Assembly (NCBI GenBank): GCA_017849455.1
Contig: JAFIGX010000007.1
Location: 4,208-68,207, forward strand
Length of the DNA stretch: 64,000 bases
Direction of reading: 5' to 3'
From: Pseudobacter sp.
GTDB taxonomy: Bacteria > Bacteroidota > Bacteroidia > Chitinophagales > Chitinophagaceae
This document shows, one piece after another, positions 2,307 through 61,296 of the stretch; within the stretch, counting starts at the first letter, position 1, and each line of letters opens with the position of its first letter. The translations under genes and the position numbers were made by a program. The notes beneath the pieces were generated by a model, which was not told the DNA's origin, ran no database searches, and worked only from the letters and a program-made list of their open reading frames with translations.

Positions 2307-2318
2307 AAATCAAAAATA

Positions 2319-3752: not shown

Positions 3753-3781
3753 TCAGTATAGAACCAGCTGAAAAAATTTAT

Positions 3782-5182: not shown

Positions 5183-5237
5183 ATTAAAGTGGGCTGGTAC
5201 TAAAAATAAATAGTTAGGCAACTTAATTGTATTGATA

Positions 5238-6584: not shown

Positions 6585-6585
6585 A

Positions 6586-36063: not shown

Positions 36064-36426
36064 CGCACTACTCCCGAAATAATATTCAGATAAGAGAAGT
36101 CTTATTCCTATGACAGACCAGGTTTCTGGTTAAAAAGAGCTCTGAATCCCGCGCTACTATTGCATCTCTTGACCAACGATGCCATTAAGACCCGCTATCC
36201 TTTTCAAAAGGGGCTTCGCGATAACTCTTGTTATGCCATTGAGCCATTAAATCTACCTATGCGATGCCATATCCGGGTATTCTGCCCGGCCTATGGCTAT
36301 TACATCGGCAAGAACATCATCTGAAAAACTGTTGGGTATTCGTTTGTACTAAGACGTAACCCAACAATTATTTAACCCTCCGGGATTCAACATGATTTTC
36401 AATTTCCCGGATCAACCTTGACTTTT

Positions 36427-39877: not shown

Positions 39878-41302
39878 ATGAAGCGCAATCAATATCTATT
39901 AGCCAGTATTCTGACACTATTTATCAATATTTCCTGCAAAAAAGATTTCCTTGATGTTGTTGATCCTAATACTGCCACAAAGCAGGGATATATAGTCGAT
40001 CTCAAAGCAACAGGAGAATATTTAAATGGCATATATATTACAATAGCAACTCAATTATATTCTCAGAACGGCATAACCATCTATCCTGATATTATTGCTG
40101 ATAATATTAAATTGGTAAACGCAAGTGCACAATATTTTGCTCAGCCATACTATTGGTTGCAGGTTACATCAACGACGGCGACTGGTTCAAAGAATGCAAA
40201 TGTGATCTGGTTGAATGGTTACCAGATCATCCGATCCTGTAATCTTGTTATAGAGAAAGCGGAACAATACAAAAGTCAAAATGTGGAGCAGGCAAATGAT
40301 ATGAAAGCCCAGGCATTAGCTATTAGATCTTTGATCAATTTCCTGTTGGTAAATACATTCGCTCAGCCTTATCGGTTTACAGCAGACGGGGCTCATCCAG
40401 GCATCCCATATATAGTCAGTTCGGATTGGACGGTGCCTCTCAAAGGAAGACAGACCGTTGCAGAAGTTTATGCTCATCTTGTCTCGGACCTGAAGGACGC
40501 TCTACCAATGTTCTCTTCCTCCAGGAATAGTTTATACATGAACCAAAATGCCGCAAAGGCATTACTGGCAAGAGTTTATCTATTTAAAGAAGATTATTCC
40601 AATGCAAGAATTCTGGCAAATGAAGTTTGCCAGAAAGTTCCACTCATGGGAGGAGGTGCAGGTGGCTATCCTTCCAAACTGTTTACTCCCAATGAAACGG
40701 AAGCATTATTTCAATTGCCGCCCAGTAAAACAGATTATTCTACTCAATTTATCGCAGCAAATTTTTCGCCCACTTACTACGTACAGTTCCTTCCCACCTT
40801 GGATATTACGGGGATTCTACAGGAAAACCCTTCCGATAAAAGAAATGCGTGGATTACAAATACCGGCGGAAAATGGTATATCAGTAAATTCCCTTCAGGG
40901 GTGGTGCCCGGTGTCACACCTGCAGCGGGTTCTTATTATCAAACCATCTTGAGATCATCAGAAATGTATCTCACAGCCGCAGAGTCGTATGCAAAATTAA
41001 GTATTGAGGACAGTGCCAGGATCTATTTGGATGCTATTCGGTTAAGAGCTGTTCCTGATGCAGTGCCCTCTACTGCAACAGGGACTGCATTATTAGATTC
41101 AATTTATAAAGAGCGACGAAAAGAACTGGCATTTGAGGGAATAAGAATGTTCGACTTGCTTAGATGGGGAAAAGGGGTTGATAGAACAGACGCCTGGGTC
41201 CCAACGGCCAGGAACCTCCCTTTTCCTAGTCAAAAGGCAATTGCCCCTATACCACAGAACGATATTGAAGCATCAGGCCTCACTCAAAATCCCGGGTATT
41301 AA
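39878..41302 (+). CDS. SusD/RagB-family outer-membrane lipoprotein
   Basis: Lipobox LFINISCKK. C-terminal ...ERRKELAFEGIRMFDLLRWGK. Follows the SusC-like gene by 19 nt. Confidence 0.9.
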   Translation: MKRNQYLLASILTLFINISCKKDFLDVVDPNTATKQGYIVDLKATGEYLNGIYITIATQLYSQNGITIYPDIIADNIKLVNASAQYFAQPYYWLQVTSTTATGSKNANVIWLNGYQIIRSCNLVIEKAEQYKSQNVEQANDMKAQALAIRSLINFLLVNTFAQPYRFTADGAHPGIPYIVSSDWTVPLKGRQTVAEVYAHLVSDLKDALPMFSSSRNSLYMNQNAAKALLARVYLFKEDYSNARILANEVCQKVPLMGGGAGGYPSKLFTPNETEALFQLPPSKTDYSTQFIAANFSPTYYVQFLPTLDITGILQENPSDKRNAWITNTGGKWYISKFPSGVVPGVTPAAGSYYQTILRSSEMYLTAAESYAKLSIEDSARIYLDAIRLRAVPDAVPSTATGTALLDSIYKERRKELAFEGIRMFDLLRWGKGVDRTDAWVPTARNLPFPSQKAIAPIPQNDIEASGLTQNPGY

Positions 41303-41317
41303 CAAAAAAACATAAAT

Positions 41318-43903
41318 ATGAAATACAAATTAGCGGCAATTCTATTTTTGGCATTATCATTTCAAATATGCTACTCCCAGAGACAAGTAGGCCTCAGTCA
41401 TCAAAGGATTGTCATTGAATCTGTGATCCCTGAAAGTTTTCATACCTGGATGGCCGATCATCCTAAAAATGGTATTCCGTTGGAGTCAGCTAATCCAGAT
41501 TATATTACCCCGGATCCATCCTGGACTGTTAATGATGGAAAAGTTAAAGGTAATAAAGTAACGTGGATACTTTACTCAAACAATCCTGTAGCGATCCGGA
41601 TCCCTTTCCTGATCCAATCGGCATTTGTCTGTCCAGGAGATAGCATCTCTCTTTACTTTGAAGGTAAAGAGCCTGTATATTCCGGCAAGGGCAGCGAAGG
41701 GTTGAATCTGCAACGCAAACTAGAGCTTTATCACAAGAACTTACCGGAGCCAACCCCAAAGGGCTATGTTGTCCTGACATCTGTGGAAGATTACCTAAAA
41801 TGGGATAAATTCCTGGATGAACAGTCGGCATTTATCATTCCTCTTCTTGATTCTTATAAGAAAAGAATATCTCCATCCCTTTATGACCTTATTAAAAAGA
41901 ACGAATTAAAATATATAGAACATCAGCGAGCTGAAAGCCTTCTTTCTTTGAACAACCGCCGTGTGCTTTACAAAAATTCCGGGATAACACCCAACGACAT
42001 GATCACTCTTGCTGATACTAAACTGGATAAATCCCAGGCAGTATGGCTTAGAAATCAATCTGAACATTTTGGAGATCATGACGTCTGGTATTTCTTTCAA
42101 TATAACCGGATCCAGATTGCAAAAAAAGTAGGTTTCGATTTCACCAATGACAGTTTAGACAGGCCTGAGGTTTCAAGGTTGCTTTTTTACCAGACCCTGA
42201 AACAGCGTTATAAAGGATTACTCCGGGAAAGGCTTTTGCAATATTTGATTGCTGAAAGAGTAATCAAGAAAATGGGATACATGCATCCATTGACCTCAAA
42301 ACTCTTAAAAGATTATTACAGTCAGCCCGGCTTCCCTGAATATAAACAATGGATGCGAAATTTTGAGATCAAGGCCAGGAAACTGTATAACTATAATTCA
42401 AGTACAGGCGGGAATCTGGCGCCGGACTTTCAACTGGTCGATACAAAGGGAAACGTTTTTACCAAGTCAGATCTCAAAGGGAAAATAGTACTTCTTGATT
42501 TTTGGTTTTCGGGCTGCAAAGGTTGTGTGGATATGGCCCCGCAGCTCCGTAAGATTGAGGAAGAGTTCAAAAATGATCCTTCTATTGCTTTTGTGAGCAT
42601 ATCTACAGACCAGGACAAAGATCGCTGGCTTTTGAGCATAGCACAGAAAAAATATACTTCCGGCGGCGGGATCAATTTGTATACCGGAGGTCAGGGAATG
42701 AGGCATCAAATGCTAAAAGATTACAACATAACATCCTACCCAGAGTTGTATTTGCTGAATACTGAGGGAGAAATCGCTCAATATCCCTTACCGAATCCGA
42801 GAGGAGATAACGGGCTTGCATTGATAAATCTTATAAAGAAAAAACGTGCAGAGCTGAATGATGGGCCCTATATTCTGTATGAAAAGACTGACACAATGTC
42901 CATAAACTATATAAACCCGTTAACAGGAAGAATTACTGAGGAAAAACAAATAGCTCCGTTGACGCTGTCTATCGGAACAGATAAATACCCAGAAACTTTT
43001 TCTGTACAGCTAAAAACAGAATTACAAAATGAACCTTCAATTTATAATGAGCCTTCAAAGCAACTGGTAGTTTCAGATATTGAAGGCAACTTTGAGGCCC
43101 TCCGGAAATTATTGCAGGCCAGTAAAGTAATTGATTCGAAATATAACTGGATATTCGGCAATGGGCACCTGGTATTTGTAGGCGACATGTTTGATCGGGG
43201 CCAACAGGTAACAGAGTGTCTATGGCTTATTTATTCCCTTGAAGAAAAAGCCAAAAAAGCTGGAGGCTATATCCATTTCATTTTAGGGAACCATGAGATA
43301 CTTAACCTTTGTGGAGATTTTCGTTATACACAAAAAAAATATACACAAAACGCCAAATTACTTAACGAGGATTATAAATCCTTATATGGCTGTAATAGTG
43401 AATTAGGCCGATGGTTAAGAACCAAAAACATTATGGAAAAAATCGGAAATATTTTATACACACATGGAGGGATTTCCAGAGAAGTAAATAACCTATCCCT
43501 CACACTGCCTGAGATCAATGCGCTAATACGCCCTTATTATGCGGATAGAGATAATTTCAAGCAAAATAAAAAAAATCCGGAGTTGAATGTATTGTTTAAT
43601 AGTCAGACCTCTCCCTTCTGGTATAGAGGATACTATAAGAACGAAAACCAAATTCCAATCATAGACAGCACTCTGCAGAAATTTGGTGTCAGGCGGGTTA
43701 TTACAGGACACACAATAATTGCAGATACAATTAGCCTGCATCATAATGGCAAAGTGATCGATATCGATACCCATCATGCAGACGGCAAATCCGAAGCTTT
43801 GTTGATTGAGGATGAAAATTTTTATCGGATAACACCTACAGGAGAAAAAGTGTTGCTGTTAAAGAATGATAAGCTTTTTGCCATAAGGGGGCGGACAAAT
43901 TAA
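41318..43903 (+). CDS. Exported three-part fusion: unknown N-terminal domain (~360 aa) + TlpA-like thioredoxin fold + PPP-type (calcineurin-like) metallophosphoesterase
   Basis: Signal peptide MKYKLAAILFLALSFQICYSQ. Thioredoxin motif VLLDFWFSGCKGCVDMAP (CKGC at 42515-42526). Phosphoesterase motifs VVSDIEGNF, VGDMFDRG, LGNHE and GHT from ~43060 onward. Confidence 0.78.
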   Translation: MKYKLAAILFLALSFQICYSQRQVGLSHQRIVIESVIPESFHTWMADHPKNGIPLESANPDYITPDPSWTVNDGKVKGNKVTWILYSNNPVAIRIPFLIQSAFVCPGDSISLYFEGKEPVYSGKGSEGLNLQRKLELYHKNLPEPTPKGYVVLTSVEDYLKWDKFLDEQSAFIIPLLDSYKKRISPSLYDLIKKNELKYIEHQRAESLLSLNNRRVLYKNSGITPNDMITLADTKLDKSQAVWLRNQSEHFGDHDVWYFFQYNRIQIAKKVGFDFTNDSLDRPEVSRLLFYQTLKQRYKGLLRERLLQYLIAERVIKKMGYMHPLTSKLLKDYYSQPGFPEYKQWMRNFEIKARKLYNYNSSTGGNLAPDFQLVDTKGNVFTKSDLKGKIVLLDFWFSGCKGCVDMAPQLRKIEEEFKNDPSIAFVSISTDQDKDRWLLSIAQKKYTSGGGINLYTGGQGMRHQMLKDYNITSYPELYLLNTEGEIAQYPLPNPRGDNGLALINLIKKKRAELNDGPYILYEKTDTMSINYINPLTGRITEEKQIAPLTLSIGTDKYPETFSVQLKTELQNEPSIYNEPSKQLVVSDIEGNFEALRKLLQASKVIDSKYNWIFGNGHLVFVGDMFDRGQQVTECLWLIYSLEEKAKKAGGYIHFILGNHEILNLCGDFRYTQKKYTQNAKLLNEDYKSLYGCNSELGRWLRTKNIMEKIGNILYTHGGISREVNNLSLTLPEINALIRPYYADRDNFKQNKKNPELNVLFNSQTSPFWYRGYYKNENQIPIIDSTLQKFGVRRVITGHTIIADTISLHHNGKVIDIDTHHADGKSEALLIEDENFYRITPTGEKVLLLKNDKLFAIRGRTN

Positions 43904-44134: not shown

Positions 44135-44467
44135 ATGAAAAATTTATCAGTCCAAAAACTGTCCATTCTGGGTCTAGTACTGATGGGTGCTTCAGCTGTT
44201 ACTGCTGCAGTAATGCCTAAAGCAAAACAAACTATTCCTCCAGGTGAATTGAAGTTCATTTCAGCCAGAGCTGGTGTCAATCAATGGACATGTAAACCAG
44301 TTGTTTCTGTATTTAATTGTGATTATACAGCAACTGATGGTGTGAAAAGCTTTACATCTGCTGCTCCTGCCACTACCAGTCTTAACGGACCAACAACTGG
44401 AGTAGACGGTCAAAATACAGGCCTCATACCTGATGCAGCACATAATAACATTAAGAGATCAAGCTAG
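44135..44467 (+). CDS. Small (110 aa) signal-peptide-bearing two-Cys, Ser/Thr-rich protein, paralog A
   Basis: ATG start. The Sec-type N-terminus is MKNLSVQKLSILGLVLMGASA|V. It aligns gap-free over nearly its whole length with the ORF at 47097-47432. Conserved blocks are TCK, NCDYT.TD and SLN.PTTG.DG.NTGL. Confidence 0.6.
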   Translation: MKNLSVQKLSILGLVLMGASAVTAAVMPKAKQTIPPGELKFISARAGVNQWTCKPVVSVFNCDYTATDGVKSFTSAAPATTSLNGPTTGVDGQNTGLIPDAAHNNIKRSS

Positions 44468-44590: not shown

Positions 44591-45688
44591 ATGCGATATA
44601 TATTATTCTTATCCCTGGCAGGAATAGCATTGGCCAGTCAAATCAATTGTTCAATGAAGGTCAAGGAAAGAAATTCCATCAGCACTAGAGGCCCAAGCAT
44701 TATCATTGAGAGTCGACTGCCTGATAATTATGCAAGGTATATAGCAAATCCTTACGATGAAGATATTACAGAACTCGGCTGGATGCCAGTAAATAATATC
44801 GCACTTCGGACTGATTGGAGAGTAGAAAAAGAATTTATTAGGGACAATAAATTAAAATGGATTATATATTCCGATAAGCCAGTGATATCCCATTCGGCTC
44901 TCCTTGGGTACGGGGTCTTCATAAATCCGGGAGATAGCGTTTGCATTATTCCAGAGAAGGATGGTTATAAATATTCTGGCAAAGGGGTTGATGGACTAGA
45001 ACTGCAAGCCAGGATTAGCAAACTCCAAGGTGGAATAAAGAAGCCATCACAAGATCATGATCAATTCGTTAATCTTGACAATTATATGGAATGGAAAAGG
45101 TACCTGGACAAGCAATTGGAATTAATTCTACCTGCCATCGACTCTTACGAAAGGAAAATACCGTCTGCTATATTCAATCTGATAAAAACCCATGCTATCA
45201 ATAGAATTGAAAAGGAACGAACGGAAGTATTCATGAGCTTTATAAATTACAAGACCAGGTATAAGGCAGAAGACCTAACCTTATTTGATTATGTAGCCAT
45301 TTTTGATTCAACCATGAACGGTCCAGCGTCACAGTGGTTAAGATCATACTCAGACTATGAAGGTGATCCATGGTTTTTTTACCAGTATACAAGGATCAAG
45401 GTTTGGAAGAAATACAATTTTGATTTCAGCCATGACAGCTTGGATGATAATAATAAAAGAGTGGATTATTACAGATCCATTAAAGAAGACTTCAAAGGAT
45501 TGCTTAGAGAAAAATTGCTCCAATATACAATTGCACAAGATATAATCAAGGGGTTGCGGTTTGCCCATCCTAAGACTGATAGTATCCTGAACGACTATTA
45601 TAAACAGCCTGGCTTTCCAGAATATAAACAATGGATGAGGAGCTATGAGGATAGCATGAGAATTAAATTTGCAAGCTTAAAAAAATAA
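44591..45688 (+). CDS. Exported protein homologous to the N-terminal domain of the 861-aa fusion protein
   Basis: It has a signal peptide. It is colinear with residues ~30-365 of the 41318-43903 product. Example pairs: YSGKGVDGLELQ vs YSGKGSEGLNLQ, and LLREKLLQY...DYYKQPGFPEYKQWMR vs LLRERLLQY...DYYSQPGFPEYKQWMR. Confidence 0.65.
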   Translation: MRYILFLSLAGIALASQINCSMKVKERNSISTRGPSIIIESRLPDNYARYIANPYDEDITELGWMPVNNIALRTDWRVEKEFIRDNKLKWIIYSDKPVISHSALLGYGVFINPGDSVCIIPEKDGYKYSGKGVDGLELQARISKLQGGIKKPSQDHDQFVNLDNYMEWKRYLDKQLELILPAIDSYERKIPSAIFNLIKTHAINRIEKERTEVFMSFINYKTRYKAEDLTLFDYVAIFDSTMNGPASQWLRSYSDYEGDPWFFYQYTRIKVWKKYNFDFSHDSLDDNNKRVDYYRSIKEDFKGLLREKLLQYTIAQDIIKGLRFAHPKTDSILNDYYKQPGFPEYKQWMRSYEDSMRIKFASLKK

Positions 45689-45701: not shown

Positions 45702-46940
45702 ATGCAACCAAGCAGCGTATTCATGAAGGAAGTTATGAAAATTTGGCGAGGTCCAAGAAAAATAGGATGCCCCTACTTACCTAACGTCGTATTACTGGCG
45801 TTAATATTGGCAGCAAATTTCGGCTGCAAGAATAATGCAGAAACCTCTCCCAGCAAATACAATTATATTAAACCTCAATATGACCAGGTCGGATTGAATT
45901 CATCAGCCGATACTATGACCTTCGCACTGGGAGAAAGCACGTACACCGATATTAAATCATTTAACCTCTTTGTTCAAAATGACACAGAATATATATCATT
46001 CTACGATCAGCGTTCGCAGACAATAAATATCTATAATTTTCAATCTCAGCAACAGGTAAAAAAAATAAAACTGAAGAGAACATTCTCTAGTGCTCAATTA
46101 TTTAAAACCACTGTTTTTACCCGGAATTTCGACAGTATTTTAGTCAACAACCAAGCTACATTTTACCAATTAGATTCTAAAGGAAAGATCAATAAAACCA
46201 TCGCCTTCCTTAAAAATCCTCCATTATCCTGGGCAGTTTTCCAAAGTACCAGTCTTCCGGTTTTTAAAGGCAGCCAGATTTATGCTCTTGTACGACCTTA
46301 CGTTAAAGAGCGGTCTCTAAAAGCATTAAAGGAATGGAGGGTATTATACAGGTTCGATTTGCAAAATGAAAAAGCAAACCTCATTTATAATTTACCTGAG
46401 ATATACCAGAAATACATCTATGGCTTCCATTTCCTGGACTACAATTATTGTTATAATGATCATGGCAATTTCGTATTCAGTTTTCCTGCAGATTCCAATA
46501 TCTATGAAACGAATCTCGAAAATTATCATATTGCCTATTATGGTAGAAGCCAGTTTCAAAATGGCCCTATTCAACCAGCCTCTGAACAGGATATATCAAA
46601 GAGTGATGATGAGTATAGAAATTTCTTAAAAAAAGATTCCTATGGCCCCATTTACTTCGATCCTTACATGAAGCGATACCTTCGGGTGTCAAGGTCCGGG
46701 ATCAGAAATACAGATCTTGAAGCAAAAAACTGGCGACAACAGGAGCGCCTTATCATTTTTGATGATGGATTTAAGATCATCGGGGAATCGAAAGTAGACG
46801 ATGAAATTTTACTCAATACAATATTTTTTACCAGGGATGGTAACATATTCGCGAGAACCAGATCTAATGATGAATATGCGCTCCACTTTGTACGCATGAA
46901 GTATGAAGAAAATATCAAGCTTCCCCTTACAAAGAAATAA
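45702..46940 (+). CDS. Lipoprotein of unknown function (possibly DUF4221 / 6-bladed beta-propeller-like)
   Basis: Lipobox LILAANFGCKNN. Asn/Tyr/Phe-rich sequence of about 400 aa. The family assignment is tentative. The start could be 45702 or 45735. Confidence 0.45.
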   Translation: MQPSSVFMKEVMKIWRGPRKIGCPYLPNVVLLALILAANFGCKNNAETSPSKYNYIKPQYDQVGLNSSADTMTFALGESTYTDIKSFNLFVQNDTEYISFYDQRSQTINIYNFQSQQQVKKIKLKRTFSSAQLFKTTVFTRNFDSILVNNQATFYQLDSKGKINKTIAFLKNPPLSWAVFQSTSLPVFKGSQIYALVRPYVKERSLKALKEWRVLYRFDLQNEKANLIYNLPEIYQKYIYGFHFLDYNYCYNDHGNFVFSFPADSNIYETNLENYHIAYYGRSQFQNGPIQPASEQDISKSDDEYRNFLKKDSYGPIYFDPYMKRYLRVSRSGIRNTDLEAKNWRQQERLIIFDDGFKIIGESKVDDEILLNTIFFTRDGNIFARTRSNDEYALHFVRMKYEENIKLPLTKK

Positions 46941-47096: not shown

Positions 47097-47432
47097 GTGA
47101 AATACTTATATGGCCAGAAATTATCCCTCTTAGGGTTGGTTTTAATGGGCGCTTCCTCCATTACGGCGGTAGTAGTTCCTACAAAAAAATTTTCATTTAG
47201 TCAATATGGACAATTAATGCTCATTTCTAAAAGAGGAGGAATAATACAATTTACCTGCAAAGCAGCATTTAGTTTAATAAACTGCGATTATACAATAACA
47301 GATAACGCATTGTATAGCTGGACTTCCTATGTTGCTGCAACATCAAGTCTCAATGCACCAACTACAGGTATTGACGGTGACAATACAGGGCTACGCGACG
47401 CGAATGGTGATGGGATTCGTACATCAAGCTAG
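47097..47432 (+). CDS. Small (111 aa) signal-peptide-bearing two-Cys, Ser/Thr-rich protein, paralog B
   Basis: The GTG start is supported by alignment to paralog A (MKYLYGQKLSLLGLVLMGASS|I). It shares the same conserved blocks: TCK, NCDYT.TD, SLN.PTTG.DG.NTGL and a terminal SS. Confidence 0.6.
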   Translation: MKYLYGQKLSLLGLVLMGASSITAVVVPTKKFSFSQYGQLMLISKRGGIIQFTCKAAFSLINCDYTITDNALYSWTSYVAATSSLNAPTTGIDGDNTGLRDANGDGIRTSS

Positions 47433-47489
47433 GCGGCTTAAGAACAAATCCATATTCAACTTATAATGATAATTCATAACTACTCAGAT

Positions 47490-48014
47490 ATGAGAACAAA
47501 AACAGTTTTGTGGGTTCTCTTACTAGCTTCTGCCTGTGGCAAACCCAAACAAAATAGTATTGAATTGATCACCATTCCCGAAAAGCAATCGTCTTTATTC
47601 CAGGATTTAGTGGCGATTACGGGAAAAACGATACCTGATACACTTCTTTCCGATTCATTGGCTTTCCTAATATTACCTGTACAGGCAAGTTGCCCTGCCT
47701 GTCGAAAAAAAACCATTGATAGCATTGCTAAACATCAGAGCGACCTGAACGATAACCATTATATCATCGTTTCAGCCAATGGCGGGCGCAGGGCTATCCG
47801 GGGATATTTCCAGGAACAGAACCATGAACTTCCTGATATCCCTGGTAAATTTTTTATGGACAGTCTAAACCTCGCATATCAGCGTAACCTTTATGTGAAT
47901 AAACCTACCATTTACTTTACTTATAACAGAAAAGTCTACAAGAAAGTAGCTGCAATCCCGGCAACTGTACGTGACGATCTTAGAGAATTTTTTTCAGGGT
48001 ACAGAGATAAATAG
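47490..48014 (+). CDS. Thioredoxin-fold-like lipoprotein with CPAC motif
   Basis: Lipobox LLLASACGK from the Met at 47490. LPVQASCPACRKK (CxxC). Its position corresponds to the thioredoxin segment of the 861-aa fusion. Confidence 0.5.
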   Translation: MRTKTVLWVLLLASACGKPKQNSIELITIPEKQSSLFQDLVAITGKTIPDTLLSDSLAFLILPVQASCPACRKKTIDSIAKHQSDLNDNHYIIVSANGGRRAIRGYFQEQNHELPDIPGKFFMDSLNLAYQRNLYVNKPTIYFTYNRKVYKKVAAIPATVRDDLREFFSGYRDK

Positions 48015-48035: not shown

Positions 48036-48950
48036 ATGTATAAAAAAATAAACATAGCACTCAGCATTCCCAATGCAGATAGACCTGACAGATATTTTGC
48101 TTTCCGGTTACAGCAATGCTTGTCCAATGAACCAGCACTATATGAGATGCCCAGCAGATTATTCGTGGTCTCTGACATTGAAGGAAACTTCCAACCTTTC
48201 TGCCATATATTGATGAGATGGAAGATCATCGATAAATATTTTCAATGGATATATGAGGATGGGCACCTTGTTGTACTTGGCGATTGTTTTGATCGGGGGG
48301 AGCAAGTTACTGAATGCCTGTGGCTGATCTATTCACTGGAAGAAGGCGCCAGAAGAGCAGGTGGGCGTGTTCATTTTATTCTGGGCAATCATGAAATCAT
48401 GAACCTTAATGGCGATTGGCGGTATGTTCATCCCAAGTACGCATACAATACTTCTTCCTTCCACCTTTCCCCAACTGCATTATATGATGCTAACAGTGAG
48501 TTATGGCGATGGCTCTGTACAAAAAATATTGTAGAAAAAATAGGCAATGTACTTTTTGTTCATGGGGGAATTGCCCCTGCACTTCTGGAATATAACCTGT
48601 CTGTACCGGAGATCAATGAAGTAGCCCGGCCGTGGTTCACCAAAGCCAACGGATCGTTCACGGATCAGTTATTGCACCTTCTTTTTAGTGGTGAGGATTC
48701 TCCTTTCTGGTATCGAGGTTATTATAATGGATTGATTACAGAAGAAATTATAGATGTTATCCTGGCAAGATTTGAAGTTACTACAATAATCACAGGTCAT
48801 ACCATGGTGGAGCAGGTACGTAGTTATTTCAATGGTAAAGTAATTAATGTGAATACAGATCATGCCAGTGGAAATTCAGAAGGGCTGGTTATTACAAAAA
48901 ATCAGCACTTTTACCGGGCGATGGATAAGAAGAGAGAAAGAATCAAATAG
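48036..48950 (+). CDS. PPP-type (calcineurin/Shelph-like) metallophosphoesterase, stand-alone paralog of the fusion protein C-terminus
   Basis: Motifs VVSDIEGNF, LGDCFDRGEQVTECLWLIYSLEE, ILGNHE and ITGHT. It is clearly colinear with residues ~570-861 of the 41318-43903 product. No signal peptide is visible. Confidence 0.8.
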   Translation: MYKKINIALSIPNADRPDRYFAFRLQQCLSNEPALYEMPSRLFVVSDIEGNFQPFCHILMRWKIIDKYFQWIYEDGHLVVLGDCFDRGEQVTECLWLIYSLEEGARRAGGRVHFILGNHEIMNLNGDWRYVHPKYAYNTSSFHLSPTALYDANSELWRWLCTKNIVEKIGNVLFVHGGIAPALLEYNLSVPEINEVARPWFTKANGSFTDQLLHLLFSGEDSPFWYRGYYNGLITEEIIDVILARFEVTTIITGHTMVEQVRSYFNGKVINVNTDHASGNSEGLVITKNQHFYRAMDKKRERIK

Positions 48951-48956
48951 TAAAAT

Positions 48957-49796
48957 TCAAAATTGAATAGGCTCCTCGGGCATTCCTTCAGTTGATGTGA
49001 TACTTAGAACATTTGCATTGCTCCAATCGCATAATACTAATTCATAGCGGGTCAGTACCTGCATCAATTCATCATCCGCGCTCTCAAGCCTGGTAATGCA
49101 TAATGAGCCAATATAGCCACTTCTCAGAATGCCATAGTATATATAGTTTTCCGTTCGGATCGAAAAACCATTTTCTACATACCCATGGCCTGCTAAAAAG
49201 ACATTACCCGGTTCCGAGGCACCAACTAATTGACAAAAAAATCCAAAGGGTAAGTCGAGGGAGTTCTTTTCCGATCTTGAAAACTGCTCTTGATAACCCA
49301 GTAGCGCATCCTGTTGGTTAACCAAAATCGATCTAATGGCTCCGATCTCACTTTCAATCTCTGGTAATGAAGTCAATGGCAAAAACTCCAGGTTTCGCCA
49401 GTCGGCCACATTTAATTCTACAGTACGATCCCCGTACATAGGGTTAACGCATATTCCAGGTAGTTCACAGATAGTTGGCGAGCTATGGCGGAACTGAATT
49501 GGGTCTGCGAAGGCAGCATTCTGAACATGCAGAGTAAGCTTTTTACGGTATTGAAATTCATCTGCCAACACAGGATTTGCTTTTAATACCCGCCACTTCG
49601 TATTATCCAGTTCAATGATAGTAGGCTTGTCAAAGCCCGAAGGCAGGATATCGGCCATCAACTTATACTTGCCTATTATATTGTTAGTAACGGCATCAAC
49701 CAGTATTACTGTTATTTTCTTAGGAAATAACATTATTGCAGAGCCAATAATTTTTGCATAATTCATAATACCATTATTATTTAGCGTACCAAGCAT
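48957..49796 (-). CDS. Hypothetical protein (279 aa), translationally abutting the kinase-LanC gene
   Basis: Long ORF whose start codon (49796) directly abuts the stop of the upstream gene (49797). No motif is recognised. Confidence 0.55.
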   Translation of the reverse strand: MLGTLNNNGIMNYAKIIGSAIMLFPKKITVILVDAVTNNIIGKYKLMADILPSGFDKPTIIELDNTKWRVLKANPVLADEFQYRKKLTLHVQNAAFADPIQFRHSSPTICELPGICVNPMYGDRTVELNVADWRNLEFLPLTSLPEIESEIGAIRSILVNQQDALLGYQEQFSRSEKNSLDLPFGFFCQLVGASEPGNVFLAGHGYVENGFSIRTENYIYYGILRSGYIGSLCITRLESADDELMQVLTRYELVLCDWSNANVLSITSTEGMPEEPIQF

Positions 49797-51953
49797 TTAT
49801 ATCAGCATCGGAAATCCTATTACATCCGGGTAACAATACCGCAGCAAAAAGTGTAGTACACCACTGTTTCCTGTCATAAAACTCGCTGTCGGATGACGTT
49901 CATGTTCTACAAGCCAATAAGGGCCGGATTTCTCATCTTGCTTTTGCAATTGCATAATTATCTGGGATATCCAACCTGCCCTATGCAGCCATTCCTCATC
50001 CTTAAAGACTCGCCATGCTTCCAGATATGCCTCTCCAACACCACTAAGTCCATAACTCTGCCCAAGATTGTTATCAATGATCTCCCCAGGGATGTTTTTC
50101 AAGGCGCTAACTGCATATTGTTTATAAACCGGTTCATTAGTAATTTGCCAAGCCTTCATAAATGAAAGGGCAATGCCGGAAGCCCCGCCTGTCCACCAAT
50201 ATGAAAGTTCTTTACCTTTTGATGAATTCCACCAGATGCCTCCATTTTTGTGAATAGCTTTTTTCATCAACCACTGCATCCCCCGAATTGCAGATTTTGT
50301 ACTGGTCTCATCATTATAGGAATGCCCATACTCCAGTAAAAAGTAAAGGATGCCAGCCATCCCCTCCACAAACCCCCGTGTTATTTTGTTCATCTTCCTT
50401 TTAGTAATTTTTTGTTGATAATTCCCGAAAATCCAATAACCATCATACTCCTGTTTTTCCAATAAGAAACGTACATACTGTTCTATTCGCTCTTGTATTT
50501 TCTGGGAACTGCAGAGGGGTTTTGCAATAAGATTGGCAATGCCTTGTCCGGCTACACCAGACAAAATACCCAGGGAATCACTTGTTCTCGCCAATAATTG
50601 ATCAATCCAATCTAAATATTCAGGTGAAGGTTCTACCAGTTTGTTCCGGATCGCCGTTGCCAATGAAGCTGCAATGCCATCAGATCCAAAATGCAAACCG
50701 GTATTGGCAGATTCTATTCTATTAATATATTTTTCCCGAATTCGTTCCAGACCTAACTGAACAAAGGGTAGTGCAGTTTGCACATCCAATCCAACATATT
50801 TAGCCTGGCTTATCATATAAATTATCCCACTATCCCCACGATTAAAGCTGGCATACCACATTTTACTAAGCTTATGTTTATCCATATCTGGGGTGGGCTT
50901 CATGTTTTCTGCAAACCAGCCTTTTTCCGGATCAGCCATTAAAGGAGATATCATCGTTCTGATGGATTGTTGAACGATTGACAAAATATCCTCCCTATCA
51001 TAAAATACCGAAGATGACGAATGCCTGGAAACGTCATACCTGATATCAGTTTTGTATTGTTGGAGCGTCCGCCTGACCACCTTTGCAGAAGGCCTGACGG
51101 TCGCATCCGGTTGCATACACCGTATTATCAACTCCCCTATCTCCTGGTCCGTGACCAGGAAATGAACTTTCCGCGATAATGATTCCAATGATTCATTCGT
51201 GAACTTGAGTGGCGATATCCCCGTCCACACCTGCAGCATAATTGCCCCCAATGCATAAATATCCTCCGCGGTAGTCGGCGTTTCAGTAACCTCTTGCTGG
51301 GGCGACATATACCCATAAGTCCCCAACTGAAATGCCGGCGTTGGAAATTGTTCTTTCACGGAATAACACATTTCCATATCGATCAATGCCACCTTTCCGC
51401 CAGGAGTGATCATGTAATTATTAGGAGTAGCATCCCGATGCACTACCTGTTGACTATGGAGAATATCCAGAATGTCCGCTATCTGTATCAGGTAATCCAA
51501 CACTTTCATCCCTTTCTTACCCCCGGTGATGATCGATTGTCTCAATTCCTTCCTCCACTCAGAACATATTTTCTGCAATGGCTTTCCCCGTATATGTTCG
51601 ATCACCAGGTAATAATTCCCATTTTCTTCAAAAGTGCCTAACAACCGGGGCATCCGCACTTTATCCTGTAAGAGCTCATGCAATTGTTTCTGCCATTTCA
51701 ATCTGTCGATAATATCACGCCCCTGCTTGTCTTTCGTATCACCATAAGTTCCTTCCTTGATCACACAAAATCCAAAATTGGTAAGACTTTTGATATACAG
51801 GCACTTCACTACATCATTCTTCTGACTTTCCTTATAACTTTTGATGATAATGTAATTGTACCCTACGCGCTTACCACTTTTCTTTTCCACCTTACCTTTT
51901 ATCTCCTGCTCGACAGGGGCATCGCTGACATGTGTTACGGTGGCAATTTTCAT
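49797..51953 (-). CDS. Ser/Thr protein kinase fused to a LanC-like (lanthionine-synthetase C-like) alpha-toroid domain; no lyase domain
   Basis: The kinase motifs are CVIKEG (LanKC-type Lys region), VVHRDATPNNYMI (HRD...N), LIDMEM and GTYGYMSPQQ. The C-terminal half has repeated LanC-type Gly-rich helix starts: GVAGQGIANL, GMAGILYFLLE, GGASGIALSF, GLSGVGEAYLE and GNSGVLHFLL. Confidence 0.85.
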   Translation of the reverse strand: MKIATVTHVSDAPVEQEIKGKVEKKSGKRVGYNYIIIKSYKESQKNDVVKCLYIKSLTNFGFCVIKEGTYGDTKDKQGRDIIDRLKWQKQLHELLQDKVRMPRLLGTFEENGNYYLVIEHIRGKPLQKICSEWRKELRQSIITGGKKGMKVLDYLIQIADILDILHSQQVVHRDATPNNYMITPGGKVALIDMEMCYSVKEQFPTPAFQLGTYGYMSPQQEVTETPTTAEDIYALGAIMLQVWTGISPLKFTNESLESLSRKVHFLVTDQEIGELIIRCMQPDATVRPSAKVVRRTLQQYKTDIRYDVSRHSSSSVFYDREDILSIVQQSIRTMISPLMADPEKGWFAENMKPTPDMDKHKLSKMWYASFNRGDSGIIYMISQAKYVGLDVQTALPFVQLGLERIREKYINRIESANTGLHFGSDGIAASLATAIRNKLVEPSPEYLDWIDQLLARTSDSLGILSGVAGQGIANLIAKPLCSSQKIQERIEQYVRFLLEKQEYDGYWIFGNYQQKITKRKMNKITRGFVEGMAGILYFLLEYGHSYNDETSTKSAIRGMQWLMKKAIHKNGGIWWNSSKGKELSYWWTGGASGIALSFMKAWQITNEPVYKQYAVSALKNIPGEIIDNNLGQSYGLSGVGEAYLEAWRVFKDEEWLHRAGWISQIIMQLQKQDEKSGPYWLVEHERHPTASFMTGNSGVLHFLLRYCYPDVIGFPMLI

Positions 51954-52035: not shown

Positions 52036-52269
52036 TCAGTTTTTTCGTTGAAAAGAAATATTGAAACTCCCCTCCTGGTCATAATAATAGCTCTGCCTGT
52101 AGCTGTTGAATTTTATGGGAGCACCGAATTCTTTCATCAAATTCAGGTATTCATACACACTTCTTTCTGAAATACCCAGCTTATTGGCCAGCTCTGTCGG
52201 TGTGCCCGTGGCTTTGATGCGTATAAGCTGGTCAATTCGTTCCAGACGTTGAAATATTTCTCTTTGCAT
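52036..52269 (-). CDS. Small helix-turn-helix protein (HTH_11/DeoR-N-like)
   Basis: 77 aa with ...GTPTELANKLGISERSVYEYLNLMKEFG... It overlaps the 3' end of the MauE/DoxX gene by 38 nt. Confidence 0.6.
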   Translation of the reverse strand: MQREIFQRLERIDQLIRIKATGTPTELANKLGISERSVYEYLNLMKEFGAPIKFNSYRQSYYYDQEGSFNISFQRKN

Positions 52270-52699
52270 AAGATAGGTTTTTATTGATTCGGCGATACTT
52301 TGTTTCCAGGATAATGGCGATGCTGCTCAATACAACAAAGAAACTGTTGAATACGATATGAACTCCCCACGACATCTCTTCCAGTACACCCCCGCAGGAG
52401 CATGGGATATCCGATCCCGATAGTAACATGGCTGCTATATAAACGGTAAAAAGGAACATCAACACGAAGGAAGCATAGAGACCTGCCAGCCGGGTCACCG
52501 GCAGCAGGAGCATTATTGCAATACAGATCTCGGTGGCAGGTACCAGCCAGGCCAGGATGCCTGCAAATGGGGCTATATAAGGAGACTCGCTGAGACCAAA
52601 CTGAAAATTGGCGTAATCGGCCAGTTTGGCCCAGGCTGCATACACGAACAATAGGATATGAAGCAGGGAGGCGATCCCCACAAAGATTTTCCTGGTCAT
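52232..52699 (-). CDS. MauE/DoxX-family redox-associated membrane protein
   Basis: Four predicted TM helices and the characteristic SDIPCSCGG motif in the third or fourth helix region. Confidence 0.7.
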   Translation of the reverse strand: MTRKIFVGIASLLHILLFVYAAWAKLADYANFQFGLSESPYIAPFAGILAWLVPATEICIAIMLLLPVTRLAGLYASFVLMFLFTVYIAAMLLSGSDIPCSCGGVLEEMSWGVHIVFNSFFVVLSSIAIILETKYRRINKNLSYAKRNISTSGTN

Positions 52700-53171
52700 A
52701 GCTAAATTTTCAGAATGTTGAAGAGTTGTTATCTAAGGATACGATGCTATAATTTTTAACTGCCGGATAAATGTTCATCGTCCGCTGTCTGTTGTCTTTC
52801 ATTAACAGACAAACGAAGTATGGCTACCGGAACAGGCCATGCAGAGGGATGCATGTTGATCATTTATTGAGGGTACTGGTTTCTGCGGAGGCATAACCAG
52901 TGAATAACAATATAAATTTCCACCCGGATCGACCCTGTTTAGTTATGAAATCGGGAGTAAATTCCATACGAAAATGGCAAATATTGAAAACTTAACATTG
53001 ACCTAAGGGTTTGTCTCTACCAATCCCTAGAACATTTCAGATAGATATTTTGTCGATCGCATATTGGATTTTCCAGTTCGTTCCTCATTATCCCTCCTGG
53101 AATTATTCACACCCTGTGATTAAGTTAATTTGACTAAACCTCCTTGTCGGTTTACGTTTGCAGTCGCTCTT

Positions 53172-53392
53172 TTACCGCAATTGTGCTGGTTCCTGCGCCG
53201 GTCAGCCGGCCAGGATTAAAAGGGAACCATGTGAAAATCATGGGCTGTTGCGCAACTGTAAGTTTTACACCCCACTTATTACAGCTGAACTTCAGGCCAC
53301 TGTGCCCCTGGTAAATGGCATGGGAAGGCGTTCAGCCGTCCGCCGCAAGGCGGGTAAAACAAGTCAGGATACCTGCCGGTACGATCTGTGCT
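53172..53392 (+). ncRNA. Cobalamin (adenosylcobalamin) riboswitch upstream of nrdB-nrdA
   Basis: The conserved blocks occur in the canonical order. They are ggttcc, ttaaaagggaacc, gtgaaaatc, gctgttgcgcaactgtaag, ggccactg, gggaaggc and the B12 box aagtcaggatacctgcc (53361-53377). The element ends about 130 nt upstream of the nrdB ATG. Confidence 0.85.
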
Positions 53393-53522
53393 AAAACCTT
53401 CGCATTAAAGGTAAATGCATCACTTTAAAATGTCAGTTTGGCTTTATTCCCCATAAAGCCCAGGCATATTATCGCTGTTCATTTCCCCATGCGCGATCCA
53501 ATGAATATTAAAAAGTGATAGT

Positions 53523-54488
53523 ATGCAAAACGAAATTCTCCTCCAGGAAAACAAAGACAGGTTCGTGATCCTTCCCATCAACTATCCCAGGGTATGGGAA
53601 ATGTACAAGAAGCATGAAGCCAGTTTCTGGACAGCCGAAGAAATCGACCTGAGTGCCGACCTGAAAGACTGGGCGACTATGAACGACGGAGAACGCCATT
53701 TTATTTCCCATGTACTGGCATTCTTTGCCGCCAGTGACGGTATCGTGAACGAAAACCTCGCCGTCAATTTCATGAGCGAAGTACAATTGCCGGAAGCACG
53801 CTGCTTCTACGGATTCCAGATCATGATGGAAAATATTCACTCCGAAACCTATGCCCTCCTGATCGATACTTATATCAAAGACCCACAGGAAAAGCATCGC
53901 CTCTTCCATGCCATCGATACCGTTCCTGCCGTTAAGAAGAAAGCGGAATGGGCCCTCCGCTGGATCGAGAACGGGAGCTTTGCCGAAAGACTGGTAGCTT
54001 TCGCCGCCGTGGAAGGTATTTTCTTCAGCGGTAGCTTCTGCTCCATTTTCTGGTTGAAGAAAAGAGGGCTCATGCCCGGTCTCACCTTCAGCAATGAGCT
54101 GATCAGCCGTGATGAAGGCCTTCACTGCGAATTCGCCTGCCTGCTTTACAGCATGCTCCATGGAAAGCTCTCCCAGGAAGAGGTCTATGCCATCATTAGC
54201 GATGCCGTCAAGATCGAAAAGGAGTTCATTACCGAAGCGCTTCCGGTGGACCTGATCGGGATGAACGCCAAGCTCATGCAGCAATACATCGAGTTCGTGG
54301 CCGACCGATGGCTCTCCGAACTGGGTTACCCCAAAATGTTCAACAGCACCAATCCGTTCGATTTCATGGAAATGATCTCACTGGAAGGCAAGACCAATTT
54401 CTTCGAGAAACGCGTGGGCGACTACCAGAAGGCCGGTGTACTGGGCAATAAAGAATCACAGACATTTTCCCTGGAAGAAGATTTCTGA
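53523..54488 (+). CDS. nrdB: Ribonucleoside-diphosphate reductase (class Ia) small subunit beta
   Basis: [31 protein letters not shown], the ferritin-like iron ligands (..MENIHSETY..) and the C-terminal tail ...FSLEEDF. It closely resembles eukaryote-type R2. Confidence 0.93.
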
Positions 54489-54526: not shown

Positions 54527-56914
54527 ATGTTTGTAATTAAAAGGAACGGTAAGAAAGAATCCGTGAAATTCGACAAGATCACAGCCCGCATCGAAAAGCT
54601 GTGCTATGGACTGGACAGAAGGTTCGTCAATTCCATCGACGTTGCAAAAAAAGTTATCGAGGGACTGTATGATGGTGTTACTACCACCGAACTGGATAAC
54701 CTGGCTGCGGAAACAGCCGCTTCCCTGACCGTTAAACACCCCGACTACGCGCTGCTGGCCAGTCGCATAGCCATCAGCAACCTGCATAAGAATACCACTA
54801 AGGTCTTTTCCAAAACCATGCAGCTCCTGTTCGAATGCAGGGACAGCAAGGCAGGTAAAGCAGCCCCGCTGATCGCCGACGATGTATGGGAGATCATCCA
54901 GCAACATGCCGAGCTGCTCGATTCTACCATCATCTACGATCGTGATTACGGCTTCGATTATTTCGGTTTCAAAACCCTGGAAAAATCCTACCTCTTGAAA
55001 GTCGATGGCAAAGTGGTAGAACGCCCTCAGCACATGTATATGCGTGTAGCTATCGGCATTCATAAAGACGATATCGAGAGCGCCATCAAAACCTACCACA
55101 TGATGAGTGAGCGCTGGTTCACACATGCCACTCCTACCCTCTTCAATGCAGGCACACCAAAACCACAGATGAGCTCCTGCTTCCTGCTCACCATGAAGGA
55201 AGACAGCATCGACGGTATTTACGATACTTTGAAACAAACAGCCAAGATATCCCAGAGTGCGGGTGGCATCGGTCTTTCCATCCACGGCATCAGGGCAACC
55301 GGCAGTTATATCGGCGGCACCAACGGCACCAGCAACGGCATCATCCCCATGCTCCGTGTGTTCAATGATACTGCCCGTTATGTAGACCAGGGCGGTGGCA
55401 AACGCAAAGGCGCTTTCGCCGTTTACCTCGAACCCTGGCACGCCGATGTTTTCGAATTCCTCGACCTCCGCAAGAACCATGGTAAGGAAGAATTGCGCGC
55501 CCGCGATCTTTTCTATGCCCTCTGGATCCCGGACCTCTTTATGAAAAGAGTGGAAGAGAACGGCGACTGGAGCCTGTTCTGCCCCCATGAAGCTCCCGGT
55601 CTTCACGAATGCTGGGGAGAAGCTTTTGAAAAACTCTATGCACAATACGAACAGGAAGGCAAGGCAAGAAGGACTGTGAAAGCGCAGGACCTCTGGTTCG
55701 CTATTCTCGATGCACAGATCGAAACAGGCACACCATACCTGTTGTACAAAGATTCCGCCAACCGGAAATCGAACCAGCAGAATCTCGGTACTATCAGGAG
55801 CAGCAACCTTTGCACAGAGATACTGGAATTTACATCTCCTGATGAAGTGGCCGTCTGTAACCTGGCTTCGCTGGCGCTGCCCCGTTTCGTGATCGATGGA
55901 CGCTTCGACCATGATAAATTGTATGAGATCACTTATGAGGTTACCAAAAACCTGAACAAGATCATCGATAATAATTATTATCCTGTTGAGGAAGCACGTA
56001 CTTCGAATCTTCGCCATCGTCCTATCGGGCTTGGTGTACAGGGATTGGCGGATGTATTCATCCTGATGCGTGTGCCGTTCGAAAGTGAGGAAGCCAAAAA
56101 GCTGAACCAGGAAATTTTCGAAACGATCTACTTCGCAGCTATGACCGCCAGCAAAGACATGGCGAAACTGCAAGGCCCGTACGAAACCTTTGCCGGTTCG
56201 CCCGCCTCGAAAGGGGTATTCCAGTTCGATATGTGGAATGTTGAGCCATCGCTCCGGTGGGACTGGTACCGGCTGAAAGATGAAGTGATCAAATATGGCC
56301 TGCGTAATTCCCTGCTGGTAGCGCCTATGCCTACCGCTTCCACCTCACAGATCCTCGGCAATAATGAATGCTTCGAACCATACACTTCCAATATCTATGT
56401 TCGCAGGGTATTGAGCGGTGAATTTGTTGTGGTGAACAAGCATTTGCTGAAAGACCTGATAGAACTCGGGCTTTGGAATGATGATATGAAGAACAGGATC
56501 ATCGCCCACAATGGTTCTATCCAGAAGATCGATGGTATCCCCGATAATATCAAAGAGATCTATAGAACAGTATGGGAGATCAAACAGCGTACACTCATCG
56601 ATATGGCTGCCGACCGCGGCGCCTATATCTGCCAATCGCAATCACTCAACCTGTTCGTGGATACGCCTACTACCGGCAAACTCACTTCCATGCACTTCTA
56701 TGCCTGGAAGAAGGGACTGAAAACAGGTATGTACTACCTCCGCACCAAGGCCGCAGCACAGGCAGTACAATTTACCGTTGAAAAGCAGGGAGGCAAAATG
56801 GTGGAACCGCTTACCGATAAACATTCCCTGAAAGTAATAGAAGGTAATAACGACACGGATATTGCCGGCCCCACTTGCAGTATGGAGGATGGTTGTGTTA
56901 CCTGCAGCGCATAA
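54527..56914 (+). CDS. nrdA: Ribonucleoside-diphosphate reductase (class Ia) large subunit alpha
   Basis: N-terminal ATP-cone ([20 protein letters not shown]). Active-site regions SNLCTEI and [11 protein letters not shown]-terminal CxxC tail (CVTCSA). Confidence 0.95.
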
Positions 56915-61180: not shown

Positions 61181-61254
61181 AGGATCGGTAGTTCAGTTGG
61201 TTAGAATGCCGCCCTGTCACGGCGGAGGTCGCGGGTTCGAGTCCCGTCCGGTCC
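61181..61254 (+). tRNA. tRNA-Asp (anticodon GTC)
   Basis: The 74-nt cloverleaf was folded by hand. Acceptor stem GGATCGG/CCGGTCC has one G.U pair. Anticodon stem CCGCC/GGCGG carries the loop CTGTCAC. The T-arm is GCGGG-TTCGAGT-CCCGT. No CCA is encoded. Confidence 0.9.
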
Positions 61255-61296
61255 GCAAATGGCCACAAAAGGCAACAAATGGCCACAAATTCCAAG

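Follow-up and report, generated by a model that had tools for sequence, protein, structure and literature searches.

What does a protein do that has kept the kinase and the LanC-like part of a lanthionine synthetase and has no lyase domain? The question is raised by a gene on the minus strand of a window of 64,000 nucleotides (nt; the whole stretch of DNA analysed here) from contig JAFIGX010000007.1 of Pseudobacter sp., which encodes a kinase–LanC-like protein of 718 amino acids (aa). Coordinates given below are those of the window and residue numbers are those of the 718-aa protein. A preliminary description of this gene had proposed that its product lacks the lyase domain as well as the zinc ligands of LanC enzymes, so that it could phosphorylate a substrate and not eliminate the phosphate on its own. 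We find that the protein corresponds to a LanL/LanKC enzyme minus its first ~190 residues, since the NCBIfam model for LanL is matched only from position 188 onwards. As to its function, the reading that we favour, tentatively and at rather less than even chances, is that of a leader-guided peptide kinase acting on small proteins encoded in the same gene cluster.

Domain architecture and active-site residues

The protein and the positions that bear on its chemistry are as follows.

49797 to 51953 (stop codon included), minus strand: kinase–LanC-like protein, 718 aa (open reading frame and translation, Pfam, NCBIfam LanL model, AlphaFold2)
51054 to 51866, minus strand: Ser/Thr kinase domain of the LanL/LanKC type, residues ~30 to 300 (Pfam, NCBIfam, alignment)
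51690 to 51692, minus strand: Gln88, at the position of the kinase alphaC Glu (alignment)
49818 to 50846, minus strand: LanC-like alpha/alpha-barrel, residues 370 to 712 (Pfam LANC_like; alignments to LanCL2, LanCL1 and CuvL)
50364 to 50366, minus strand: E530, aligned with the catalytic acid His (AHG motif; His710 of SgbL) (HMMER alignment)
50190 to 50192, minus strand: T588, aligned with the first Zn-ligand Cys (WCxG) (HMMER alignment)
50052 to 50057, minus strand: S633-Y634, at the positions of the Cys-His Zn ligands (CHG) (HMMER alignment)

Pfam scans of the 718-aa protein gave 68.3 bits for Pkinase (cut-off 31.7; residues 98-292) and 91.3 bits for LANC_like (cut-off 23.2; residues 370-712), so that the C-terminal half does score as LanC-like, and no match to RamC_N (PF25816). 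The LanL model NF038150 aligned residues 31-706 with model positions 188-843 of 851 at 268.2 bits (cut-off 650), leaving the first ~187 positions, which cover the lyase, without a counterpart, and the LanKC model NF038151 reached 151.6 bits (cut-off 575). A longer N-terminus is ruled out by an in-frame stop and by the upstream gene for a helix-turn-helix (HTH) protein, which ends at 52036, 82 nt from the start codon. An AlphaFold2 (AF2) model built on 22 homologues had a predicted template-modelling score (pTM) of 0.82, with residues 1-61 unstructured at a predicted local distance difference test score (pLDDT) of <50. Its best fold matches in the PDB were the three-domain synthetases CuvL (template-modelling score, TM, 0.68), ThurKC, SalKC and PneKC; LanCL proteins and ordinary kinases ranked after them. 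A divergent and complete lyase in the first ~250 residues was thus not seen by hidden Markov model (HMM), alignment or AF2. The motifs on which the preliminary description had relied were found at residues 63-68 (CVIKEG), 170-182 (VVHRDATPNNYMI), 211-220 (GTYGYMSPQQ), 586-593 (WWTGGASG) and 633-640 (SYGLSGVG). It had placed the start of the kinase within ~40 residues of the N-terminus, which agrees with homology from about residue 30 and not with the beta3-Lys motif CVIKEG at 63-68, and the conclusion that no lyase precedes the kinase is unaffected. All these features are conserved across the 22 aligned homologues and therefore are not due to chance.

The kinase's catalytic residues are present, namely K66 (beta3), D174 and N179 (catalytic loop) and D192, the latter in a D-x-E motif that stands in for DFG as in LanKC and LanL, and all four are invariant in the family (22-sequence alignment). 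Judged from these residues, the kinase domain is apparently catalytically competent. Gln88 is likewise invariant in the family and lies within a conserved R-L-x-W-Q motif. A dead kinase was considered as an explanation for Gln88 and rejected; we read the residue as a trait of the wider clade described below, probably not a mark of inactivity, because Gln is found in 146 of its 148 representatives, including those with complete lyase and Zn residues. The N-lobe region formed by beta1-beta2, alphaC and beta4-5, which in LanKC and LanL binds the leader peptide (PMC9828337), is conserved between the kinase–LanC protein and its full-length relatives. Features of signalling eukaryotic-like Ser/Thr kinases (PknB/Stk1-like) were not found in the protein: matches to such models were partial, confined to the kinase domain and far under the cut-offs, there were no transmembrane or PASTA segments, and the alphaC Glu was absent.

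In SgbL, cyclisation depends on five residues, among them His710, Cys769, Cys814 and His815, and these four are each needed to form methyllanthionine (PMC9292228). Alignments to LanCL2, LanCL1 and CuvL place T588, S633 and Y634 at the Cys/Cys/His positions, which bears out the proposed absence of the Zn-ligand set, and together with E530 they indicate that the protein is without the residues used by class I, II and IV cyclases. The comparison with class III cyclase domains, also made in the preliminary description, holds for the missing ligands and not for the HMM scores, which are nearer to LanL (268) than to LanKC (152). The Zn site was lost in a subclade and not throughout the family: WC..G and CHG are retained by the syntenic orthologues of Chitinophaga pinensis and C. 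barathri, and both Cys and the AHG His by an orthologue from Flavihumibacter. The kinase activity of ThurKC needs its cyclase domain (PMC10604976), and hence the LanC-like domain may have a role other than cyclisation. With all kinase residues conserved and no lyase found, the idea of a protein that phosphorylates and is unable to eliminate alone fits the data; on its predicted domain content, the kinase–LanC protein alone cannot dehydrate Ser/Thr and therefore would by itself form no lanthionine.

Family, origin and relation to known synthetases

A word-indexed search retrieved 354 homologues. The best 120 of them are 51-66% identical to the query, all contain Pkinase and LANC_like, and 119 have 711-753 aa (one has 673). 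Family members, typically of about 715-740 aa, occur in Chitinophagaceae, with sequences from Niastella, Chitinophaga, Paraflavitalea, Longitalea and soil metagenomes, and are named 'protein kinase/lanthionine synthetase C family protein' by NCBI, one JGI record reading 'class III lanthionine synthetase'. The 22-sequence alignment holds ~150 invariant positions over both domains, which points to clear constraint on each of them. The gene thus belongs to a conserved but uncharacterised family of Chitinophagaceae and is not a singular oddity; a literature search found no paper on this kinase–LanC family or on any lyase-less LanKC or LanL. Frameshifted pieces of the kinase–LanC gene and of several neighbours, either pseudogenes or assembly errors, were observed in Paraflavitalea speifideaquila (L032, 10168-12168) and C. 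pinensis YS-16 (L034, 10001-12099). Some Chitinophaga loci also carry an extra degenerate paralogue of ~450 aa, consisting of a kinase C-lobe remnant and a LanC-like part, just upstream of the HTH gene (L004, 6343-7695, plus strand; L013, L014 and L015, about 8500-9630, plus strand).

An exhaustive HMMER search of 1.84 billion representatives listed ~16 lyase-less representatives of ~700 aa. Next in the list came longer proteins (850-920 aa, 30-36% identity). These carry RamC_N, belong to Bacteroidota, Olivibacter and Dawidia among them, and align through their residues ~190-900 with residues ~30-717 of the query. From these alignments the kinase–LanC protein is a two-domain descendant of three-domain LanL/LanKC-type synthetases from which the lyase domain was deleted. 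In a clade alignment of 148 representatives of >600 aa, the four catalytic residues of the kinase were intact in 148 of 148, whereas the Cys/Cys/His Zn set was kept in only 20. The lyase domain was present in 129 and absent from 19, five of which keep the Zn set, and 59 of the 129 lyase domains were substituted at the positions of ThurKC H67, K94 and K108; because the alignment is wide, its lyase columns may be misaligned in part, though the trend is still clear. Since the kinase residues are invariant and lyase and Zn residues were often lost, phosphotransfer is the constrained chemistry in this clade.

When compared to class IV LanL enzymes (VenL, SgbL and CuvL, PDB 8CAV/8CAR), the protein shares the HRDxTPxN catalytic loop, D-x-E in place of DFG, the lack of a canonical Gly-rich loop and the order kinase then LanC, and NF038150 and CuvL are its best HMM and fold matches. 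It differs from them in having no N-terminal lyase, E/T/S/Y in place of SgbL His710/Cys769/Cys814/His815, Gln for the alphaC Glu, and an NF038150 score far under the cut-off. With class III LanKC enzymes (ThurKC, CurKC, PneKC, SalKC and TherKC) it has in common the pairing of a kinase with a Zn-free LanC-like domain and the fold, matched by ThurKC, SalKC and PneKC, and recognition of a hydrophobic leader by the kinase N-lobe would be plausible. Class III enzymes are, however, described as three-domain proteins in which the lyase is essential (PMC10604976; PMC13504147, a 2026 study); in the window protein the lyase is missing, the LanKC score is 152 versus 575, and no SxxSxxxC-type precursor was identified. 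The protein therefore falls outside both LanL and LanKC as these are defined, by the missing lyase and sub-threshold HMM scores and, for class IV, also by the missing Zn site.

The nearest relatives, three-domain proteins of Bacteroidota such as those of Olivibacter domesticus (WP_093318368) and Dawidia soli (WP_254090340), are 32-35% identical to the protein over residues ~30-717, have the WQ motif in helix alphaC and have similar neighbours. Unlike the window protein, they carry their own RamC_N domain of ~190 residues, and their clusters are without the SusCD/Shelph arrangement described below. By length, domains, 51-66% identity and synteny the window protein is a member of the Chitinophagaceae 'protein kinase/lanthionine synthetase C family protein' group, within which the C. 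pinensis and C. barathri members keep the Zn ligands that it has lost. Eukaryotic LanCL1 and LanCL2 resemble it as LanC-like barrels acting on or with protein kinases, and LanCL2 is the best PDB sequence match of its C-terminal domain (E 4e-8); these proteins, in contrast, are stand-alone, have their Cys/Cys/His Zn site intact and attach glutathione to dehydroamino acids, whereas the barrel in the window is kinase-fused and Zn-less. Class V lanthipeptide systems also split dehydration and cyclisation over separate polypeptides (PMC9486802), but with unrelated proteins, and no HopA1-type lyase occurs among the open reading frames of the window.

Gene cluster, small proteins and the search for a lyase

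The kinase–LanC gene is part of a minus-strand operon in the order MauE, HTH_11 protein, kinase–LanC and a 269-aa gene, and a plus-strand gene set converges on it.

52232 to 52699, minus strand: MauE-family membrane protein, first gene of the operon, overlapping the start of the HTH gene (Pfam MauE, 110.7 bits)
52036 to 52269, minus strand: 77-aa winged HTH protein (HTH_11, YafY/WYL-type N-terminal domain), directly upstream of kinase–LanC (Pfam HTH_11; PADLOC WYL HTH)
48957 to 49766 (mechanical open reading frame to 49796), minus strand: 269-aa protein of no known fold, downstream of kinase–LanC (61 homologues; AF2)
48036 to 48950, plus strand: phosphoprotein phosphatase of the Shelph type (PPP family), 304 aa, no signal peptide (Pfam Metallophos)
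47466 to 48014, plus strand: 182-aa lipoprotein with a CPAC (CxxC) motif, thioredoxin-like (sequence, synteny)
47097 to 47432, plus strand: small protein 2, 111 aa, with signal-peptide-like N-terminus, two Cys, Ser/Thr-rich; candidate substrate (sequence)
45702 to 46940, plus strand: DUF4221 lipoprotein (Pfam, 93.3 bits; synteny)
44591 to 45688, plus strand: 365-aa secreted protein, paralogue of the N-terminal domain of the 861-aa protein (36% identity, E 7e-74)
44135 to 44467, plus strand: small protein 1, 110 aa, with signal-peptide-like N-terminus, two Cys, Ser/Thr-rich; candidate substrate (sequence)
41318 to 43903, plus strand: secreted 861-aa protein in which an N-domain, a TlpA-like thioredoxin and a Shelph-type phosphatase are fused (Pfam Thioredoxin_8, AhpC-TSA, Metallophos)
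39878 to 41302, plus strand: SusD-like lipoprotein (domain scan, synteny)
36418 to 39858, plus strand: SusC-like TonB-dependent transducer with STN signalling domain (domain scan, synteny)
34795 to 36063, plus strand: FecR-type anti-sigma factor (domain scan)
33943 to 34533, plus strand: extracytoplasmic function (ECF) sigma factor (domain scan)

One module is present both fused and split: residues 8-354 of the 861-aa protein share 36% identity with the 365-aa protein, and its residues 548-837 share 49% identity with the 304-aa phosphatase. The 304-aa phosphatase matches the cold-active protein-tyrosine-phosphatase of Shewanella (2Z72/1V73) with an E-value of 1.8e-59; its first metal-binding motif reads SDIEGN versus SDVHGQ in the Shewanella enzyme (His to Glu), as does that of the 861-aa paralogue. 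The HTH protein was considered as a recognition element of RiPPs (peptides made by the ribosome and modified post-translationally) and rejected, having weak matches only to HTH domains of transcription factors and to WYL-type N-terminal HTH domains, and on this similarity it is treated as DNA-binding. For DUF4221, no paper mentioning it was found in the literature search.

In 30 Chitinophagaceae genome loci, 26 of them with enough flank, the HTH gene was the sole universally adjacent gene, adjoining kinase–LanC in 30 of 30. DUF4221, the CxxC lipoprotein and the phosphatase each occurred in 25 of the 26, and SusD was detected in 24 of them; the 269-aa gene was found in 19 of the 30 loci and MauE in 12. 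This synteny is kept over at least seven genera. Two loci have the block of small-protein, DUF4221, CxxC and phosphatase genes inverted, so that it follows the kinase–LanC gene on the same strand, with a small-protein gene directly after kinase–LanC in L012 and the 269-aa gene in between in L015. Three-domain relatives elsewhere in Bacteroidota adjoin MauE, a Redoxin-like protein and small signal-like Cys/Thr-rich proteins. Next to that of Dawidia soli there are MauE, a 363-aa protein without Pfam matches and a four-Cys DUF6520 small protein (L049, 10610-12644, plus strand), and next to that of Olivibacter domesticus a Redoxin-like protein with CxxC and a Thr-rich protein of 80 aa with two Cys (L048, 13867-14794, plus strand), neighbours that hint at a wider system in Bacteroidota.

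The small proteins in the cluster form a family of their own. In 25 loci we found 39 such genes, often in several tandem copies, for proteins of 76-126 aa with a strongly conserved N-terminus (M-x-K-x-S-x-K-K-L-S-I-L-G-L-V-L-M-A-A-S-A-V-T-A-A-x-x-P) in which Ser10 is invariant. Exactly two Cys are present in 33 of the 39, usually as [ST]-C ... C-x-x-[ST], and the cores consist to 20-35% of Ser and Thr. The two small proteins of the window are 55% identical to each other. When a metagenome search was seeded with the small proteins, it returned 10 loci, and all five with enough flank hold kinase–LanC and HTH; therefore, the linkage is reciprocal. Several N-x-[ST] and D-T-T-S motifs and a T-x-G-N-T-[ST] motif near the C-terminus were observed, and D-T-T-S resembles the O-glycosylation motif of Bacteroidota, D-[ST]-[ALIVMT]. 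A SxxSxxxC or STxSNxC motif is not conserved in the small proteins. Assignment to DUF6520 or another known family was tried and rejected, with no Pfam or NCBIfam match, though a DUF6520 protein adjoins one full-length relative. The N-terminus could be a Sec signal peptide with an AxA site or a hydrophobic leader of the sort that the kinase N-lobes of LanKC and LanL bind (PMC9828337; PMC13504147).

The preliminary description had suggested that a trans-acting partner might supply elimination. A profile of six Bacteroidota RamC_N domains was run against all six frames of the window and of 34 loci; in the 64-kb window it had no match at E<=10, and Pfam scans of the window's open reading frames found no LanB, LanM, HopA1 or OspF family member. 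Strong matches (E 1e-25 to 1e-31) were obtained in three loci, those of Niastella vici, Chitinophaga sp. CF418 and C. rhizophila, where genes between those for the CxxC lipoprotein and the phosphatase encode RamC_N+Pkinase proteins of 450-468 aa that have no cyclase domain and form their own deep clade.

L011, 16236 to 17609, minus strand: stand-alone RamC_N+Pkinase gene (RamC_N profile)
L014, 13909 to 15258, minus strand: stand-alone RamC_N+Pkinase gene (RamC_N profile)
L021, 13903 to 15279, minus strand: stand-alone RamC_N+Pkinase gene (RamC_N profile)

Such a gene is absent from the other 23 of the 26 related loci. Canonical lyase activity of these proteins is doubtful, because the positions of ThurKC K65, H67 and K94 read L/Q/A, F/V and R/V, respectively. 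The idea of a partner in trans thus finds some footing in three relatives and none within the window. A protein-database search with the lyase-like domain from N. vici gave no scoring match and is uninformative on the spread of stand-alone lyase-kinase genes. The 269-aa protein was also considered as a recognisable trans-acting lyase and rejected: it has no Pfam, NCBIfam or PDB sequence match and nothing like OspF, SpvC or HopA1, and its gene is absent from 11 of the 30 loci. No PDB fold matched its confident AF2 model (pLDDT 84.8) at E<=0.001, there is no Pfam domain in 61 homologues, and it might yet be a lyase of novel fold.

Three further features of the window lie outside this cluster. 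In a second SusC/SusD locus (69-7038, plus strand) the next genes encode a Redoxin-domain protein of 466 aa, a type I phosphodiesterase/NPP and a DsbD_N protein, so that the theme of TonB transporter, thiol-redox protein and phosphoesterase recurs in the genome without kinase–LanC. A cobalamin riboswitch (Rfam RF00174, 87.9 bits; 53170-53394, plus strand) lies upstream of nrdB (53523-54488) and nrdA (54527-56914), the genes of a class Ia ribonucleotide reductase, and accounts for the greater part of the 800-nt gap next to the gene for MauE. Towards the window's right end there are a gene for a 631-aa CHAT-domain protein (61480-63375, minus strand) and a tRNA gene (61182-61255, plus strand).

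Possible functions of the kinase–LanC protein

If the kinase–LanC protein is a leader-guided peptide kinase, it would bind the conserved N-terminal segment of small proteins 1 and 2 (44135-44467 and 47097-47432), and their Ser/Thr residues would be phosphorylated in the cytoplasm, with the LanC-like barrel serving as a substrate-binding, kinase-activating scaffold and not as a Zn-dependent cyclase. Removal of the phosphates might then fall to the Shelph-type phosphatases, of which one is cytoplasmic and the other is secreted as a fusion with a thiol-disulfide oxidoreductase; the fusion of a phosphatase to a TlpA-like domain in a secreted protein fits a substrate with both Cys and phosphate. 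MauE and the CxxC lipoprotein could handle the Cys pair after export, and the adjacent HTH protein would regulate the operon. Several points weigh against such a role. The N-termini of the small proteins resemble the usual Sec signal peptides, AxA site included, and these proteins may thus never meet a cytoplasmic enzyme for long; their conserved Cys pair, together with periplasmic redox proteins, fits a plain disulfide. The LanC-like domain is strongly conserved, with many invariant residues in the 22-sequence alignment, and might still catalyse something. Gln88 stands where the alphaC Glu normally pairs with the beta3 Lys, and ThurKC requires that Glu (PMC10604976). Finally, the second SusC/SusD locus has redoxin and phosphodiesterase genes and no kinase–LanC gene, and the transporter part of our cluster could be a nutrient-uptake module of which the kinase and the HTH protein are merely the regulator.

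That last point leads to a possible though doubtful alternative, in which the protein is a regulatory Ser/Thr kinase that, in a module with the HTH protein and the cytoplasmic PPP-type phosphatase, controls the SusC/SusD cluster, the barrel being a sensor of a ligand or protein. The HTH gene is the only one that never leaves the kinase–LanC gene, its product has a YafY/WYL-type DNA-binding domain and is no RiPP recognition element, pairing of kinase and phosphatase is typical of signalling, a role outside biosynthesis agrees with the missing lyase and Zn site, and SusCD, redox and phosphoesterase modules occur without the kinase as well. However, the kinase belongs to the peptide-modifying LanL/LanKC type, with the leader-binding elements of the N-lobe retained, the cluster already possesses an ECF sigma/anti-sigma pair, full-length and probably biosynthetic relatives have the same kinds of neighbours, and the reciprocal tight linkage with the small-protein family would be left unexplained. 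The locus might instead encode a split lanthipeptide synthetase, with kinase and Zn-independent cyclase here and the lyase on another polypeptide outside the window, the small proteins gaining (methyl)lanthionine rings. [quoted passage not shown] In addition, the RamC_N+Pkinase genes of three loci sit inside the convergent operon, and their lineage is old and occupies the same position in different genera. We nevertheless hold this arrangement to be unlikely, as neither RamC_N nor any other lyase family searched for was found in the window, the lyase-kinase gene is missing from most related loci and, where present, its substituted residues mean that it may be no active lyase.

Two further explanations carry far less weight. 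The loss of one domain and of the catalytic residues of the cyclase, and the frameshifted genes in two loci, would be in agreement with a decaying synthetase remnant without current function, which we consider very improbable in view of an intact open reading frame of 718 codons, >350 full-length homologues, the best 120 of them at the identities given above, the ~150 invariant positions over both domains and synteny across genera. An anti-phage defence kinase is the least probable of all: PADLOC and NCBIfam kinase models (PD-T4-6, MkoA and mad6) do match the kinase domain, but these matches are confined to the generic kinase part, the neighbours match no defence family except for weak matches of the HTH region of the 77-aa protein to WYL and mad1, and the context is a chromosomal SusC/SusD cluster.

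Taken to its full extent, the peptide-kinase reading would describe a new peptide-maturation system, in which a LanL-derived kinase–LanC protein without lanthionine chemistry phosphorylates signal-peptide-bearing small proteins, possibly at Ser10, and the modification is undone by dedicated Shelph-type phosphatases on either side of the membrane; export would then be gated by phosphorylation, or the product would be a phosphopeptide, sensed or taken up again via SusC/SusD and the ECF sigma factor. In this complete form we regard it as quite unlikely. The architecture and the conserved cluster are real and unusual, and it is from them that we infer a function.

For annotation, the consequence is immediate. 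Mining pipelines call any protein with Pkinase and LANC_like class III or IV (PMC7268733), and the kinase–LanC family shows that such calls can be wrong, because by its predicted domain content the protein cannot dehydrate by itself; one homologue is already labelled a class III lanthionine synthetase. The family also represents a natural experiment, in which a Zn-free LanC-like domain is combined with a LanL-type kinase without a lyase. Invariant kinase residues along with repeated loss of lyase and cyclase residues in this Bacteroidota clade point to an unrecognised, phosphorylation-centred function. Through its tight linkage with genes for small secreted proteins, for thiol-redox proteins, for phosphoprotein phosphatases and for a TonB-dependent transporter, the family marks out a concrete, testable gene cluster in soil bacteria that can be cultured, Niastella koreensis and Chitinophaga pinensis among them.

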